Below are positions 66-8,116 of a stretch of 8,116 nt of DNA, piece after piece. Origin of the DNA: a virus (Duplodnaviria; Heunggongvirae; Uroviricota; Caudoviricetes). The stretch's first letter is position 1; the number at the start of each line of letters is the position of its first letter. The translations under genes were made by a program, and so were the position numbers. The stretch is from positions 1 through 8,116 of IMG/VR virus record IMGVR_UViG_2622736468_000006; one strand, written 5' to 3'. The notes below the pieces were generated by a model. It saw only the letters and a program-made list of their open reading frames with translations. It was not told the origin of the DNA and did not search any database.

Positions 66-569
66 TTATTGATAGTGTTTTATGTTCAGATAATGCCCGA
101 TGACCTTGTCATGCAGCTCCACCGATTTTGAGAACGACAGTGACTTCCGTCCCAGCCTTGCCAGATGTTGTCTCAGATTCAGATTATGTCGCTCAATGCG
201 CTGAGTGTAACGCTTGCTGATTACGTGCAGCTTTCCCTTCAGGCGGGATTCATACAGCGGCCAGCCATCCGTCATCCATATCACCACGTCAAAGGGTGAC
301 AGCAGGCTCATAAGACACCCCAGCGTCGCCATAGTGCGTTCACCGAATACGTGCGCAACAACCGTCTTCCGGAGCCTGTCATACGCGTAAAACAGCCAGC
401 GCTGGCGCGATTTAGCCCCGACATAGCCCCACTGTTCGTCCATTTCCGCGCAGACGATGACGTCACTGCCCGGCTGTATGCGCGAGGTTACCGACTGCGG
501 CCTGAGTTTTTTAAGTGACGTAAAATCGTGTTGAGGCCAACGCCCATAATGCGGGCTGTTGCCCGGCAT
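66..569 (-). CDS. insB: IS1 InsB frame, the catalytic part of InsAB' transposase reached by a -1 frameshift from insA
   Basis: The 167-aa translation matches canonical IS1 InsB and overlaps the insA 3' end in the -1 frame. Confidence 0.95.
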
Positions 570-763
570 CCAACGCCATTCATGGCCATATCAATGATTT
601 TCTGGTGCGTACCGGGTTGAGAAGCGGTGTAAGTGAACTGCAGTTGCCATGTTTTACGGCAGTGAGAGCAGAGATAGCGCTGATGTCCGGCGGTGCTTTT
701 GCCGTTACGCACCACCCCGTCAGTAGCTGAACAGGAGGGACAGCTGATAGAAACAGAAGCCAC
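488..763 (-). CDS. insA: IS1 InsA, the transposition inhibitor / DNA-binding N-terminal part of the InsAB' transposase
   Basis: The 91-aa translation ([32 protein letters not shown]...) is the canonical InsA with its zinc-finger-like CxxC...CxxC and HTH. The start codon is GTG on the minus strand. Confidence 0.95.
506..514 (-). other. IS1 programmed -1 ribosomal frameshift motif (A6C slippery run) in the insA/insB overlap
   Basis: Plus strand reads GTTTTTTAA, i.e. TTAAAAAAC on the coding strand, inside the insA-insB overlap. This is the known IS1 frameshift site. Confidence 0.85.
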
Positions 764-818: not shown

Positions 819-826
819 CTCGTTAG
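819..826. repeat. Right copy of 8-bp target site duplication CTCGTTAG flanking IS1
   Basis: Exact repeat of 43-50 immediately outside the IS1 terminus. Confidence 0.85.
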
Positions 827-1066
827 CCCGCGCCCAATCTGGAATTACGGGCTTTCTACACCATCCATATGGTCATCACAGATCCATTAGCCGATCCACA
901 TAAAGTTTAAATTTACTATATTTATCATGATATTATCGACAACCCCACCCTCCCTCTAGATCCTTTTTACTGAAAAAAAGTGAAATCCCTTTCATTCATT
1001 TCAGTTTATATTCTCCGCAAAGCCGCCAGTACTGGCGCGGGCTGGCGATATGTTTTGAAGAAAAAT

Positions 1067-2239
1067 TTAACTGAAAAATTTTATCGATCCAGAAACCGCA
1101 GGCGGGTGCGGTGTAGTGCCGTTTTTGTCTGCGAAAGATTTATTTTGTCTGCATGTGGCTACCTCAGAGCGTCGCTGTGAATTTGATCTTATTGCGGTGT
1201 CGCAGTGGTTATCCTGCGGCGTACATCCATCCCATTGCGATACAAAGCCACCTTTGCTGTGTACTGCGTGGAAACGTGATGGCGCAGTGATGGTGTAAAA
1301 CTCACCGGCCAGCCCTTCTTCATTGGCCATATCTTCAAACCCTCGCATTCTTACCATTAGTTCACATCGACGGATCGCCGGATTTGCAACGCTGCGGTGC
1401 ACCATGCTGTCCAGTGCAATGCGCAGCCCCTCATCATTCAGCAGTTCAAACTTTTTAAAGAACTCCAGATTCCGCTTTTTCTGGTCTATCCATTCACCCA
1501 GTGTTTTGCGGGATACATAAGCGCTGGCCGCTTTTTGTACCTGTCCCACCGCGATGGCCATATGTTCGCGCTGTGTATCACGCGCACGTTTAAGACGCAG
1601 GTACCACCATTCCGGCGCCATCATGCGCAGTATCCCTGATTCCGCCTTACGCATTTCCAGTTGGCCTTCATTTGCTTCGTGTTCAACCCAGTACGGCGGC
1701 TGGTTATTCAGCATCAGGCAACACGCACAAAGATGGCGGTATGATTCCAGGGTGCGGCGGTGCAGCTCTCTGGCGTCGTCAGTGCCGGAATCAAACTGTT
1801 CGGTGAAGTCATAAAGTGACTGGGAAATCCAGCCAGATACCTGGTCAGCCAGTTTTTTAAGATCAGGACGGTCTAGTGACAGCAAGCGTTCCAGCGACTT
1901 ACCAAAAGGAAGATCAGCAGCGTCAGCGGCCAGCGAGTAACGCGCAGCCACTTTGCGCAGACGTGGCAATACACTCCCGCCGATAGTTTGGCGCAGGAAT
2001 GTATTGGCACGGCGACGCCCGTCACGACCAGCAAACAGCTTTTCGTAACGACGGCCAAAATACCCGGCTAACCAGTCGGGTATCTCATGAAGGTACTGTG
2101 AGCGCCATTCGTAATCCTGCGGGTTAACCGACCACAGGCGGCGCTCGGTGATCGTGGCGTCTGTAGGCGTACCCGGTGCGAACGTTTCACGCCGCCAGGT
2201 ATCGACGGAGTGATGTTGGCCATTGGCTACAGGAGTCAT
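1067..2239 (-). pseudogene. gpA-like rolling-circle replication initiator (P2/186 A family), N-terminal ~390 codons only; likely truncated
   Basis: ATG at 2239-2237 overlaps the dam stop as ATGA. The translation contains FYTITAPSRFHAVH, resembling rolling-circle initiator motifs 1 and 2, but no paired-tyrosine (Y..KY) catalytic motif. It ends at 1067, about half the length of characterised P2/186 A proteins (roughly 700-760 aa), and the DNA downstream (819-1066) has stops in every frame. Confidence 0.6.
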
Positions 2240-3096: not shown

Positions 3097-3415
3097 AATG
3101 ACCTCCGCCAACTAACGACTCTGTTACACCGTTTGAAATGATGTATTCCAGCACTTCAAGCGGTGACAGCGAACGGATAGATAAAACCACCCAATTTTCG
3201 GCATCAGCGATAATTTCATTCACCGGCAAAACATGGGTGATAACTGCCGCCCACTCTCGCCCGGTGTATTTCCCGTGCTTCCACTCGCACAATGAAAGAA
3301 CATCACCGGTTTTATACCCGCGATCATTTTTACGCAGCTCGGCCTTTTTCTGACCAGCCACCACAGCATTAAGGTATTTCGGCGCAATTTTTACCGCATG
3401 GATTTTGATTGTCAT
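3086..3415 (-). CDS. ASCH-domain protein (PUA-like fold, DUF3850-like), function unknown
   Basis: 109 aa from ATG 3415-3413, which overlaps the exonuclease stop as ATGA. Carries the ASCH signature GxKxxExR (AGQKKAELR) followed by NDRGYKTGD. The track start at 3466 is a TTG and was not used. Confidence 0.65.
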
Positions 3416-4299: not shown

Positions 4300-4701
4300 T
4301 TAGTGAAAAGTGGGTTGTACTGTGGCGGCTGAGTAGTTCGGTGCCGGAATCAGGTGCAGCTCATAGGTTATCCGCCACCACTCCTGGATCAGCGCTTTTA
4401 TCTCGCCAACTCCCAACGCCCCGGCTGTATAGAAAATTGCACGAATCCCCGCCAGCGCTTCTATCTGGGCTTCTTTGCTTTTCGCTTCGCGATATACGCA
4501 GCACCAGAAAGCAGCATTGATCGCCAGCCAGTGACGCGGATTTGTCATGTGTTCAGTGTCGTTGAAGAAGAACGGATGCAAAGCGATACGCCCATTTTTA
4601 CTGGTGCTTTTCTCTGCAAACGCTAATGCGTAGTTATGCGGGACGCCCCACACAGCCAGCTCTGCCCCTAGTGATTTACCTTCAACCGAAATAATGGACA
4701 T
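4300..4701 (-). CDS. Hypothetical phage protein, 133 aa
   Basis: ATG at 4701-4699 overlaps the upstream stop as ATGA, with AGGGG eight nt upstream. The ORF fills the whole interval without internal stops. No family recognised from sequence alone. Confidence 0.55.
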   Translation of the reverse strand: MSIISVEGKSLGAELAVWGVPHNYALAFAEKSTSKNGRIALHPFFFNDTEHMTNPRHWLAINAAFWCCVYREAKSKEAQIEALAGIRAIFYTAGALGVGEIKALIQEWWRITYELHLIPAPNYSAATVQPTFH

Positions 4702-5129
4702 CAGTGATTCCCCTGTTGCTGTAACTTCTGGACAATATGAGGTGCAATCACCATCTGCACCCCGCTGCTGCTATAAATTGGATGAACCTTCTTGATTGGG
4801 CGGTTCGCGGTACGTTTCGAAAAATCGCTGTCACGTAAACTGCCGAAACCTTCAAACGTTAACCGCGCCCGTGAAATGCCCTGGCGCAGTTGAATCATGT
4901 CCCGATAGCCCAGGCGTTCATAAAGCTCACGCCAGCAGCACTTGCTTAAATGGGCTTTAAATGCCCCGGTACCAGAAGTAACCGCAGCAGCATGAAGTAC
5001 TACGCCGCGCCACTCCGGTGTCAAGTTGTCCCACCATTCAGCGGCCTCGCTGCTTTCGCTGAAGTATTTGCGGCGGATCTGTTTTAAATGCTCCAGCCCG
5101 CGCTTTTGCTGTTCCTGGCTAATCGCCAT
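4701..5129 (-). CDS. Hypothetical phage protein, 142 aa, basic
   Basis: ATG at 5129-5127, immediately preceded on the coding strand by a G9 homopolymer. The stop overlaps the next ATG. No family recognised. Confidence 0.55.
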   Translation of the reverse strand: MAISQEQQKRGLEHLKQIRRKYFSESSEAAEWWDNLTPEWRGVVLHAAAVTSGTGAFKAHLSKCCWRELYERLGYRDMIQLRQGISRARLTFEGFGSLRDSDFSKRTANRPIKKVHPIYSSSGVQMVIAPHIVQKLQQQGNH

Positions 5130-5133
5130 AGCG

Positions 5134-5142
5134 CCCCCCCCC
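5134..5142. repeat. Homopolymeric tract, C9 on the plus strand (G9 on the coding strand)
   Basis: Nine consecutive C at 5134-5142. On the minus strand this reads TAG-GGGGGGGG-CGCT-ATG, lying between the stop of the 57-aa ORF and the start of the 142-aa ORF. Confidence 0.9.
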
Positions 5143-5315
5143 TATAGCCCCATCAGACGACGCCACCACGGGCGACGCGGCTGCTGGCCATTGAATTTGT
5201 ACATGTGGCCAGGGTTCCAGCGCTGACCGTTCGGCAGTTCAATCCAGCCCGTTGAACCACTGGGCAATTGCATGGCCGGTGATTCGTTTTTCAGGTAAGT
5301 GACAAACGCTTTCAT
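5142..5315 (-). CDS. Small hypothetical protein, 57 aa, in the position occupied by fil-like genes in 186-type phages
   Basis: Not in the supplied track. ATG at 5315-5313 with GGGAGA upstream, directly after the cII stop. Translation: MKAFVTYLKNESPAMQLPSGSTGWIELPNGQRWNPGHMYKFNGQQPRRPWWRRLMGL. Stop is TAG at 5144-5142. Confidence 0.45.
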   Translation of the reverse strand: MKAFVTYLKNESPAMQLPSGSTGWIELPNGQRWNPGHMYKFNGQQPRRPWWRRLMGL

Positions 5316-5324
5316 GGTTCTCCC

Positions 5325-5828
5325 TCACATCAGGCCGGTGGCGTTGGTTGTGACCAGATCCACCGCAGCGGCCAAAACCGGCGCAGAGTGAATACGGCTT
5401 TCAACGGTATAAGCCAGCACGGATAAGCTACGGATTGCATCTCGGGCGCGATCCAGAATTTGAGTACGGCGGGCGGCGGTCATATGGCCAGCTGATACGG
5501 CTTCCCCAGCAATCGCGCCCACACTGGCTGTGGCGCTCAGTGCACACAGTTGTATGTTGCCTTCTGTTGCATTGTTCACCGGTACGGATGGAAGGCAGTT
5601 AATCTGCCCCAGCATCCCATCCAGTAAACGCGCATCTTCGGTGTAATCCGTGATAGCCAAAAGTTCATCACAGGTCAGGCGGTGCGGTTGCGCTGGGTTC
5701 AGTTTATTACGCAGGATCTGCGGCCTCATACCAACGGCAGCGGCCACATCTTCAAGATTGTGCTCAATTGCAAATGCTCGGCAAGCCGCATCAAAGTGCG
5801 CATGTTTAGAGGTCTGGTAATCAAACAT
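5325..5828 (-). CDS. cII: Phage regulatory protein CII (186 CII / CP76 family), lysogeny-establishment activator
   Basis: 167 aa from ATG 5828-5826, with GGGAGAGG upstream. The N-terminus (MFDYQTSKHAHFDAACRAFA...ILRNKLNPAQPH) matches my recollection of the 186 CII family. It is the second gene of the lytic operon, after the cox/apl-like gene. Confidence 0.75.
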   Translation of the reverse strand: MFDYQTSKHAHFDAACRAFAIEHNLEDVAAAVGMRPQILRNKLNPAQPHRLTCDELLAITDYTEDARLLDGMLGQINCLPSVPVNNATEGNIQLCALSATASVGAIAGEAVSAGHMTAARRTQILDRARDAIRSLSVLAYTVESRIHSAPVLAAAVDLVTTNATGLM

Positions 5829-5858: not shown

Positions 5859-6080
5859 TTACGCGTTAAGCGAAATGTCACATTCGCTTAAAGCCTGAAT
5901 AGTGAGCGCGGCCATGTTGACTTCGACCAGGCCTTTCTTCTGCTTACCCTTCGGCTTAATAGGTAATTTCCCGTATTCGATCAGGTTCCTGGCGGTTTCT
6001 TTGTTGGTACCAGTACGGCGGCAATACTCGTCTAAAGGCAGGTATGGCTCTGGGATGATGATTGTAATGTTCGGACGCAT
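5859..6080 (-). CDS. Cox/Apl-type small HTH protein (excisionase and switch regulator)
   Basis: 73 aa from ATG 6080-6078, with GGAG eight nt upstream. It is the first gene of the minus-strand operon, divergent from the repressor gene. The segment IPEPYLPLDEYCRRTGTNKETARNLIEYGKLP resembles the Cox/Apl N-terminal HTH. The track's longer version starts at a GTG at 6140. Confidence 0.6.
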   Translation of the reverse strand: MRPNITIIIPEPYLPLDEYCRRTGTNKETARNLIEYGKLPIKPKGKQKKGLVEVNMAALTIQALSECDISLNA

Positions 6081-6199
6081 GAGGCAAACTCCATAAGTTA
6101 ACCTGTACGGCAATACAGGGCTGTAACTGTCAATATTCACTTAAACCTACAAAGCGGAGTTTAAACTCACTTTGCGCAAGATTTCAAGGTAAAACTTTC
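6081..6199. promoter_or_regulatory. Lysis-lysogeny switch region between the cox/apl-like and cI-like genes; expected to hold the lytic and lysogenic promoters and their operators
   Basis: 119-bp intergenic region between divergent start codons. Contains a CTGT-N8-ACAG motif, a TTGACA hexamer on the minus strand (6133-6128), a 10-bp direct repeat and a 12-bp palindrome. Exact promoter hexamers could not be assigned with confidence. Confidence 0.6.
6103..6118. promoter_or_regulatory. Candidate LexA (SOS) box, or repressor operator: CTGTACGGCAATACAG
   Basis: Fits the LexA core CTGT-N8-ACAG with dyad-symmetric CTGTA/TACAG arms; located 23 bp upstream of the cox/apl-like start. Resembles the E. 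coli sulA box (CTGTACATCCATACAG) except in the central four positions. Confidence 0.35.
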
Positions 6200-6778
6200 G
6201 TGAACCTACAAATTGAGTTTTCTCATGGCGGAGCTGAGGTACTAGATAGAGTTATCCAAGCGTATGGATTCAACACAAAACTAGCCCTAGCCGAACATCT
6301 TGATATAGCAAGCAGCAGTCTGGCTAACCGGTATAAGAGGGATTTTTTTCCAGCTGATATCGTTGTTAGATGTATGGCTGAAACAGGAGCTACTCTGGAA
6401 TGGCTTGCGACTGGACAAGGTAGAAAGTTTAACGATGACGAATTAGACATCATGAAATTGCCACGCAAGAAGATTGTGGACGGAAAACTCTATGAGTCTG
6501 GTTTCCTAATGCTCGATAAGGTTACTTTTTTACCTGGCAAACCTTTACCGCAGAATCCTATCTGTGTGATTGATAACACAATGCAATACATTGTTGATCA
6601 ACACTTTACTGAAGTTTATGACGATGTTTGGCTTGTCGAAGTTGAAGGTAAAACCAGCGTTAGAACACTAACACGCATCCCTGTGGGAAAAGTTAGAGTA
6701 AGCGGCGTAGGTATGGCTTTTGACTGCGGTATTGACGATATAAAAATCATCGGCCGCATTGTTCTGACGATTGAATGA
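6200..6778 (+). CDS. cI: Immunity repressor, 186 CI-like (N-terminal HTH, no LexA-type peptidase domain evident)
   Basis: 192 aa from GTG 6200, the only in-frame start upstream of the HTH segment KLALAEHLDIASSSLANRYKRD. Sits directly upstream of int with its stop 1 nt before the int ATG, and divergent from the lytic operon. Length and arrangement match 186 CI. Confidence 0.75.
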   Translation: MNLQIEFSHGGAEVLDRVIQAYGFNTKLALAEHLDIASSSLANRYKRDFFPADIVVRCMAETGATLEWLATGQGRKFNDDELDIMKLPRKKIVDGKLYESGFLMLDKVTFLPGKPLPQNPICVIDNTMQYIVDQHFTEVYDDVWLVEVEGKTSVRTLTRIPVGKVRVSGVGMAFDCGIDDIKIIGRIVLTIE

Positions 6779-6779
6779 A

Positions 6780-7820
6780 ATGAGTGTTCGTAAACTTCCG
6801 ACAGGCGAATGGATCGCCGACTTCTACACCGTCAACCGTAGTAATGGTAAGAACGGGAAGCGCATACGTAAAAAATTTGCCACGAAGGGGGAAGCCCTGG
6901 CATTTGAGAACCATACGCTTCAGAAAGTAGACAATGCGCCCTGGCTGGGTGAAGGGAAGGACAAACGAACTTTAATAGACCTGATCACAATGTGGTATGA
7001 ACGCCACGGAGTAGCTTTGCGCAATGGTCAAAAGCGTAAAGACGCTATGACCTGGGCGGCAGAGTGCATGGGATTCCCGCTAGCTACAGAGTTTAATGCC
7101 CAGCTGTTCACGGCCTACCGCGCAAAAAGGCTTGATGGGCATTATGCCCGCACTAGCAGAGTATCCAAGGTTTCCCCGAAAACAATGAACCTTGAACATG
7201 CTTACTTCCTGGCTATGTTCAACGAGCTGAAACGAATCGGGGAATGGTCAGCCCCCAACCCACTGGAAAACGTCAGACAGTATCGTACTGATGAAACCGA
7301 AATGGCTTTCCTCACTGCTGAAGAAATTGAGCGGCTTTTGCTGGAATGCAAACGAAGCAAAGTAAAATACTTGGAGCTAGTCGTAAAAATCTGTCTTGCG
7401 ACCGGCGCAAGATGGAATGAAGCGGCAACGCTGAAAAGCTCTCAGATCGCAGGCGATAAAGTTACGTTCGTTAAAACCAAAGGGAAGCGCAACAGAACAA
7501 TCCCCCTTGATGATGAACTTCTATCCGAATTGCCTGAAACGAAAGGCGCTCTGTTCCCCAAACCCTGCTATAACGCGTTCCGCTCTGCTTTGGAACGCGC
7601 AGGCATTGAACTCCCCTCCGGCCAGCTTACCCATGTACTGCGCCATACATTTGCCAGCCACTTTATGATGAACGGCGGGAACATTCTGGTTCTGCAAAAA
7701 ATTCTCGGCCACGCTGACATCACTATGACAATGCGTTATGCCCATTTCGCCCCAAGCCACCTTGAAGATGCCGTGCGACTTAACCCCTTAAAATGTCGCA
7801 AAAATGTCGCGATAGCTTAG
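6780..7820 (+). CDS. int: Tyrosine recombinase / integrase, P2 Int family
   Basis: 346 aa from ATG 6780 (the track begins at TTG 6771). C-terminal catalytic signature present: LATGARWNEAA, HVLRHTFASH, LQKILGH, MRYAHFAP (catalytic Tyr). The N-terminus (MSVRKLPTGEW...GKRIRKKF) is collinear with P2 Int. Confidence 0.95.
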   Translation: MSVRKLPTGEWIADFYTVNRSNGKNGKRIRKKFATKGEALAFENHTLQKVDNAPWLGEGKDKRTLIDLITMWYERHGVALRNGQKRKDAMTWAAECMGFPLATEFNAQLFTAYRAKRLDGHYARTSRVSKVSPKTMNLEHAYFLAMFNELKRIGEWSAPNPLENVRQYRTDETEMAFLTAEEIERLLLECKRSKVKYLELVVKICLATGARWNEAATLKSSQIAGDKVTFVKTKGKRNRTIPLDDELLSELPETKGALFPKPCYNAFRSALERAGIELPSGQLTHVLRHTFASHFMMNGGNILVLQKILGHADITMTMRYAHFAPSHLEDAVRLNPLKCRKNVAIA

Positions 7821-7987: not shown

Positions 7988-8116
7988 ATGAATGAGTTCA
8001 AGAGGTGTATGCGCGTGTTTAGTCATTCTCCCTTTAAAGTACGGTTAATGCTGCTCTCTATGTTGTGCGATATGGTCAACAACAAACCGCAGCAAGATAA
8101 ACCTTCCGATAAATAG
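7988..8116 (+). CDS. Small hypothetical protein, 42 aa (MNEFKRCMRVFSHSPFKVRLMLLSMLCDMVNNKPQQDKPSDK)
   Basis: ATG at 7988 preceded by AGGAGG (7978-7983, 4-nt spacer). Ends with TAG exactly at the window end. Not in the supplied track because it is under the length cutoff. Confidence 0.4.
   Translation: MNEFKRCMRVFSHSPFKVRLMLLSMLCDMVNNKPQQDKPSDK

Follow-up and report, generated by a model that had tools for sequence, protein, structure and literature searches.

Our results suggest that the run of nine G residues in front of a 142-aa open reading frame (orf142) of the window, that is, the whole stretch of 8,116 nt analyzed here, is probably a conserved poly-G Shine-Dalgarno (SD) element that was expanded by slippage, in a nearly neutral manner, within a defective 186-like prophage. 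Under this explanation, the ancestral and usual form of the element would be AUA-GGGGG(G), located 4-5 nt before the AUG, and in one small lineage of Escherichia coli prophages replication slippage would have lengthened it stepwise to G7, to G8 and then, in the window, to G9. The 3' boundary of the run would have stayed fixed, the new Gs entering on its upstream side without touching either reading frame. In this way, the ribosome would still pair at the native register, so that the expansion would be nearly neutral, with at most a mild modulation of translation.

Read directly, positions 5134-5142 are nine consecutive C on the plus strand, corresponding to G9 on the coding (minus) strand, where the order is GGGGCTA-TAG-GGGGGGGG-CGCT-ATG-GCG-ATT. 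In the list of ORFs, the TAG (5142..5144, minus strand) is the stop of a fil-like ORF, and its third base (5142) is also the first G of the run. On the other side, the spacer CGCT (5130..5133, minus strand), whose length is fixed (CGCT or CGTT) in all close homologues, places the last G 4 nt from the ATG of orf142 (5127..5129, minus strand), a start also annotated in RefSeq relatives. Position and sequence thus agree with a sequence-only reading of this DNA, which had placed a G9/C9 tract between the stop of the 57-aa ORF and the ATG of the 142-aa ORF. The same reading took the tract to be the only SD-like element there, and indeed no second one exists within 18 nt of the orf142 ATG, the next GGGG lying about 20 nt upstream. 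The run is compositionally unusual and correctly placed. A 9-nt G/C run occurs once in the window against 0.03 expected, and at least one such run appeared in only 5 of 200 dinucleotide shuffles. The window contains no other G/C run of 6 nt or more, and in 204 kb of related loci a length of at least 8 is reached solely at this site.

The comparison of the tract covered about 50 distinct homologous loci, retrieved from phage records, complete E. coli genomes, IMG/VR, metagenomes and exact-protein look-ups. In all of them, a G-rich run is followed by a spacer of 4-5 nt and then by the conserved ATGGCGATTAGCC. About 45 of the 50 homologues have G5 or G6 at the same place, Salmonella phage S.Kent 1-2-1 has G6, and in E. 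coli Combat13F7 (locus L058) the canonical GGAGG occupies this position (TATAGGAGGCGTTATG). A protein-guided scan returned a sole distant match, an Enterobacter homologue with 61% amino acid identity, which has G5 (AUAGGGGG, also written ATAGGGGGTCGTAATG; ATAGGGGG-TCGTA-ATG); an exact-pattern scan of species-representative genomes found nothing. GGGGG can pair with CCUCC, the anti-SD, if one G-U wobble is allowed, and the computed duplex with the 3' end of the 16S rRNA (ACCUCCUUA) has an energy of -9.3 kcal/mol for G5, -11.0 for G6 and -11.5 for G9. The distance of 4 nt to the start falls within the range in which SD elements lie (about 4-10 nt upstream), and G9 offers registers with spacers of 3-7 nt. 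Because of this position, complementarity and conservation, we infer that the tract acts as the SD element of orf142 (5134..5142, minus strand; homologous alleles G4-G9 and GGAGG). The earlier proposal that the run is the ribosome-binding site (RBS) of the 142-aa ORF therefore appears sound, as a G5-G6 core or GGAGG is kept at this position in the homologues. The element resembles the canonical E. coli SD (GGAGG:CCUCC) in being G-rich, in preceding a conserved ATG by 4-5 nt and in having a homologue with GGAGG itself. In contrast to the canonical form, it is a pure homopolymer, here 3-4 nt longer than needed, with several equivalent registers.

The window corresponds to the early region of a 186/P2-like (Peduoviridae) prophage, as indicated by Pfam and PHROG matches and by the gene order, with int and cI divergent from apl/cox, cII (CP76), fil and further genes up to dam and gene A. 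The genes detected are those for an integrase, CI, a Cox/Apl-like protein, CII, Fil, orf142, orf133, DUF2732, an exonuclease, DUF3850, Dam and the replication gene A. On the plus strand lie the CI repressor (6200..6778), full length with both domains matched in Pfam, and the integrase of 346 aa (6780..7820, by domain match). On the minus strand, the first gene of the early lytic operon is an apl/cox-like excisionase-repressor of 73 aa (5859..6080; phrog_575, annotated in relatives), followed by a cII-like regulator (5325..5828; Phage_CP76, E-value 9.2e-47) and the fil-like gene of 57 aa (5142..5315; Phage_186_Fil, PF10893, E-value 9.5e-10), which belongs to a cell-division inhibitor family. 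Next come orf142 (4701..5129; 142 aa) and orf133 (4300..4701; PHROG 3935). orf142 has no family in Pfam or NCBIfam, and among the PHROGs it matches just phrog_33841 (E-value 5.7e-41), a family without an assigned function. The ATG of orf133 overlaps the stop of orf142 (ATGA), and orf133 is thus coupled to orf142.

All the genes from apl to A are on one strand with intergenic gaps of 0-12 nt, and the only promoter-like match is located upstream of apl, a sigma-70-like candidate for the early (pR-like) promoter (6158..6187, minus strand; 9/12, a consensus match only). Since the genes are packed on a single strand, with this lone promoter-like match before apl and no promoter or terminator at the tract, orf142 is an internal cistron of the early lytic operon (apl-cII-fil-orf142 and following genes). 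The same arrangement argues against the reading that fares worst, in which the run would act not as an RBS but as a DNA-level or separate RNA element (promoter spacer, terminator, protein-binding site or structured RNA). Poly-G/C tracts in promoters do drive phase variation in other bacteria. Nevertheless, a tract 4 nt before a conserved ATG inside so tight an operon, with no promoter-like or terminator-like match at or near it, no repeat associated with it and no Rfam family in the window, makes this reading hardly tenable.

Among named phages, Escherichia phage ESSI2_ev015 (Peduoviridae) comes closest, with 94.6% DNA identity across the tract region. Both this phage, as an example of the Peduoviridae, and the early operon of coliphage 186 (apl-cII-fil-dhr...-A) share with the window the order int, cI / apl, cII, fil, small ORFs, exonuclease, dam and A. 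They differ from the prophage described here, of which only a remnant persists, truncated in gene A and with an IS1 adjacent. The window derives from contig CABEEG010000004.1 of the assembly GCA_901482365.1, an E. coli chromosome in which the prophage is inserted between mntS and mntR; mntS is found at window positions 7988-8116, just beyond the end of the integrase. In related genomes, the same prophage family is present between mntS and mntR, intact in some and variously decayed in others, such as strain 573.

The replication gene A is truncated (1067..2239, minus strand), and its homology to intact relatives stops at about 1206. At that point it joins a sequence from the far end of the prophage, beyond which comes an IS1. 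This break and the gene content identify the prophage as a remnant, with gene A truncated, the late genes gone, an IS1 adjacent and CI at full length. Window positions 819-1215 match at 99% an unannotated DNA of the E. coli LH13-b prophage, which is separated from its early region by about 26 kb. Together with the break of gene A at about 1206, this match to the far end indicates that an internal deletion removed the late genes. The deletion left a gene A fusion ORF of 390 aa, found in just one contig of the whole collection. The IS1 (66..763, minus strand; DDE_Tnp_IS1, with insA-like and insB-like ORFs of 91 and 167 aa) adjoins the deletion junction and may have caused the deletion. The prophage in the strain of the window is unable to complete the lytic cycle, and in a lysogen CI is expected to keep the operon silent.

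The length of the tract differs among the homologues from G4 to G9, which answers the call of the sequence-only reading for a comparison across related prophages. The shorter alleles are G5 followed by CGTT (about 22 loci), G5 followed by ACGCT (hereafter G5A; 7 loci), G6 followed by CGCT (about 18 loci) and G4 (one locus); G7 and G8 were found at two loci each, and G9 at one locus, in this lineage only. The tract length follows the relatedness to the window. DNA identity to the window is 99.75-99.88% for the G8 alleles, 99.65-99.83% for G7, 99.2-99.6% for G6, 98.9-99.3% for G5A and about 94-97% for G5. Thus, no long allele (two G7, two G8 and G9) was found in a sequence with less than 99.6% identity to the window. 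Among those at least 99.4% identical, G6, G7, G8 and G9 are all present, a length difference between close relatives of the kind that characterizes contingency loci. The intact prophage L046, carrying G8, differs from the window by 22 substitutions and the prophage L054, carrying G6, by 33; in both comparisons, each over 6,911 aligned bp, the tract is the sole indel.

These differences point to the tract as a hot spot for slippage, which is the cause we infer. The suspicion voiced earlier, that it is prone to slipped-strand mispairing, fits both the range of alleles (G4-G9) and their being the sole indel in 6.9 kb. In E. coli, indel rates climb exponentially with homopolymer length, and G:C runs of 8 bp are already outliers in the K-12 genome (PMC8510543). 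As lengths agree within lineages defined by SNPs and recur in independent assemblies, the polymorphism is heritable rather than sequencing noise. A derived base at window position 5323 is common to the G7 and G8 alleles and absent from the G9 window; on these few sites, more than one independent length change has probably taken place within the clade. Two of the few SNPs separating the close relatives, at 5322-5323, are located within the SD of fil (GAGGGAG), in the 9 nt that separate this gene from cII, and it is at 5323 that the G7 and G8 alleles have an A. Beyond G6, all the changes seen are expansions, and the only contraction is the single G4; this excess could reflect a mutational bias or weak selection for longer tracts.

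The reading that competes best with a slippage-driven expansion is that the nine Gs result from an assembly artefact, the true tract being G8, as in the nearest relatives, or G10, miscounted in a consensus built only from long reads. The caveat of a sequencing or assembly error at this site had been raised before and it is a fair one, as G9 is displayed in a single assembly, GCA_901482365.1. Among 15 billion proteins, the variants of CII (5325-5828) and Int (6780-7820) encoded in the window occur in two contigs only (VTQ31731.1, and AMB55109.1 with the locus tag AWB62_15835). We take the contig of AMB55109.1, from its locus tag, to be probably that of E. coli MRE600, a strain identical to NCTC 8164. 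The MRE600 genome was assembled from PacBio reads alone, using HGAP and Quiver (PMC4825418). If this assignment of the strain is correct, the G9 assembly would be PacBio-only, hence an error of one base would be possible. Against an artefact, the consensus is otherwise clean, with no other indel relative to the relatives over 6.9 kb, and the presence of G7 and G8 in several independent assemblies, in agreement within SNP lineages, indicates that expansion at this site is real. Given these G7 and G8 alleles elsewhere, a real G9 is entirely plausible. We therefore regard a miscount as unlikely, and an error of one base would leave the biological conclusion unchanged.

The near-neutrality of the proposed expansion depends on what the tract length could do to expression. 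The run is outside both ORFs, with the fil stop at its 5' edge and the orf142 start after its 3' edge, and the frames are unaffected by its length. The distance from its 3' edge to the ATG is constant at 4 nt (5 nt in G5A), the added Gs being upstream. The predicted duplex with the anti-SD strengthens from -5.6 kcal/mol for G4, through the values given above for G5 and G6, to -11.5 kcal/mol, which then holds from G7 to G13. The predicted accessibility of the SD and the AUG changes little with length, and the folding is little changed from G6 to G10. In a register scan, the native proximal register (spacer of 3-4 nt) was retained at all lengths of at least G6, and G9 added equally strong registers at 5-7 nt, nearer the usual optimum. 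According to these models, the site would be weaker at G4 or less and would stay on a plateau over G6-G10. As the frames are untouched, the 3' edge is fixed and the anti-SD pairing saturates, an on/off switch by length, as the sequence-only reading had proposed for downstream expression, is not supported by the models: the predicted energy is flat from G7 and the register is kept from G6 upward. Thus, a change of one unit would alter neither the frame nor a promoter or RBS spacing, the routes by which contingency loci change expression. Such energy models can miss the effects of very G-rich or strong SDs, of multiple registers and of local structure.

The possibility of a G-quadruplex was also considered and rejected at G9, since the gquad model of ViennaRNA predicts one that swallows the SD only at G11 or more; an off state of this kind would possibly arise after two further insertions only. 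Regarding coupling to the upstream gene, 7-12 nt from stop to start is short enough for translational coupling. The distance from the fil TAG to the orf142 ATG is 12 nt here and 7-11 nt in the other alleles, as in coupled cistrons. We discarded the idea that the tract fuses fil to orf142 or shifts the frame between them, as the TAG at the 5' edge of the run is read at any tract length. The start of orf142 shares the frame of fil in the G9 and G6 alleles, where it follows the TAG by 12 or 9 nt, and is out of frame in G7 and G8. Only readthrough or suppression of the amber codon at G9 or G6 would yield a Fil-orf142 fusion, the in-frame position being probably a coincidence.

A second and still less probable reading sees in the tract a contingency locus or a translational rheostat, in which frequent changes of length within a population would tune or switch orf142 and the coupled orf133, through SD strength, register or RNA structure, and would be maintained by selection. 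The length polymorphism among nearly identical prophages is what such a locus would display, and the presence of G8 in the intact prophage L046 is compatible with it. The models leave some room for an effect at the extremes, between G4 (-5.6 kcal/mol) and G6 (-11.0) at the short end and, through the G-quadruplex that would hide the SD, at G11 or more. Precedents exist as well, as G9-G10 tracts of rmpA/rmpC in Klebsiella phase-vary at high frequency (bioRxiv 10.1101/2025.09.12.675794) and the insertion of one G into a poly-G of the 5' UTR alters the translation of espR in Mycobacterium tuberculosis (PMC11898584). Nevertheless, the frame and the SD-AUG distance do not depend on the length, the predicted SD energy is flat over G7-G13 and no G-quadruplex is predicted at G9. 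Furthermore, CI should repress the operon in a lysogen, and the prophage described here is defective.

The distribution of lengths also weighs against maintenance. In about 45 of the 50 homologues the tract is G5 or G6, with one G4 and one GGAGG besides, too short for high rates of switching, and lengths of G7 or more are limited to one recent clade, so a long tract is not kept across the family. Because most homologues have G5-G6, and tracts of greater length are few, of recent origin and found in a single clade, the alleles compared indicate that a long hypermutable tract is not a maintained trait. We also considered whether long tracts are limited to decayed prophages, and this was not the case, as G8 is found both in the apparently intact L046 and in the degraded L052; from the former, relaxed selection or decay is not required for expansion. 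The more specific version in which a phage-borne rheostat works by slippage over G4-G9, with orf142 and orf133 tuned together, a weak site at G4 or below and, at G11 or above, a G-quadruplex as a reversible off state in a temperate phage of E. coli, appears very improbable.

With the contingency loci based on simple sequence repeats of Neisseria, Haemophilus and Campylobacter, and with the G10 of Klebsiella rmpA (bioRxiv 10.1101/2025.09.12.675794), the tract shares a length, nine, that slips often and a polymorphism between close relatives. Those repeats lie inside ORFs or between promoter hexamers, where one base shifts the frame or the spacing, whereas the tract is outside ORFs and its distance to the ATG is fixed; moreover, its family is mostly G5-G6, with no sign that long tracts are maintained. 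The poly-G insertion of M. tuberculosis espR (PMC11898584) is another parallel, a G-run in an untranslated leader whose length could tune translation gradually. In espR and in Helicobacter pylori tlpB the effect passes through refolding of the leader or a small RNA partner, whereas the folding of the tract barely changes between G6 and G10 and no partner is known. The G-repeat in the tlpB leader is reportedly targeted by the small RNA RepG.

The tract also coincides with a mosaic junction, seen when window positions 5134-5145 are compared with ESSI2_ev129 (L002, about 3220-3240) and with locus L057 (1720-1745). A second fil allele of 75 aa is present in phages of the ev129 type, in E. coli EcPF15 and in the Enterobacter homologue; it translates the G6 into Gly-Gly and shares 11 nt with orf142. 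The similarity between the window and EcPF15 stops at the tract. In phages with this 75-aa allele, a change of tract length would alter the C-terminus of Fil. In E. coli Combat13F7 (L058, positions 1-964), orf142 is represented by its GGAGG site and roughly its first 54 codons, joined to a much longer hypothetical gene of 579 aa. This locus adds a further mosaic variant behind the same RBS.

If the length did affect the expression of orf142, the site would be a rare case of repeat-based tuning at the level of the RBS in an enterobacterial phage, although nothing found here supports it. Under the preferred explanation, a nearly neutral expansion of the SD of orf142, the site would represent a natural and well-resolved stepwise expansion of a homopolymer (G6 to G7 to G8 to G9) in a genome, that of E. 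coli, which largely avoids such runs. As neither frame is disturbed, it would make a handy neutral marker for slippage rates and for the accuracy of long reads in homopolymers and, if the strain is indeed MRE600/NCTC 8164, this use would apply to a common source strain of ribosomes.
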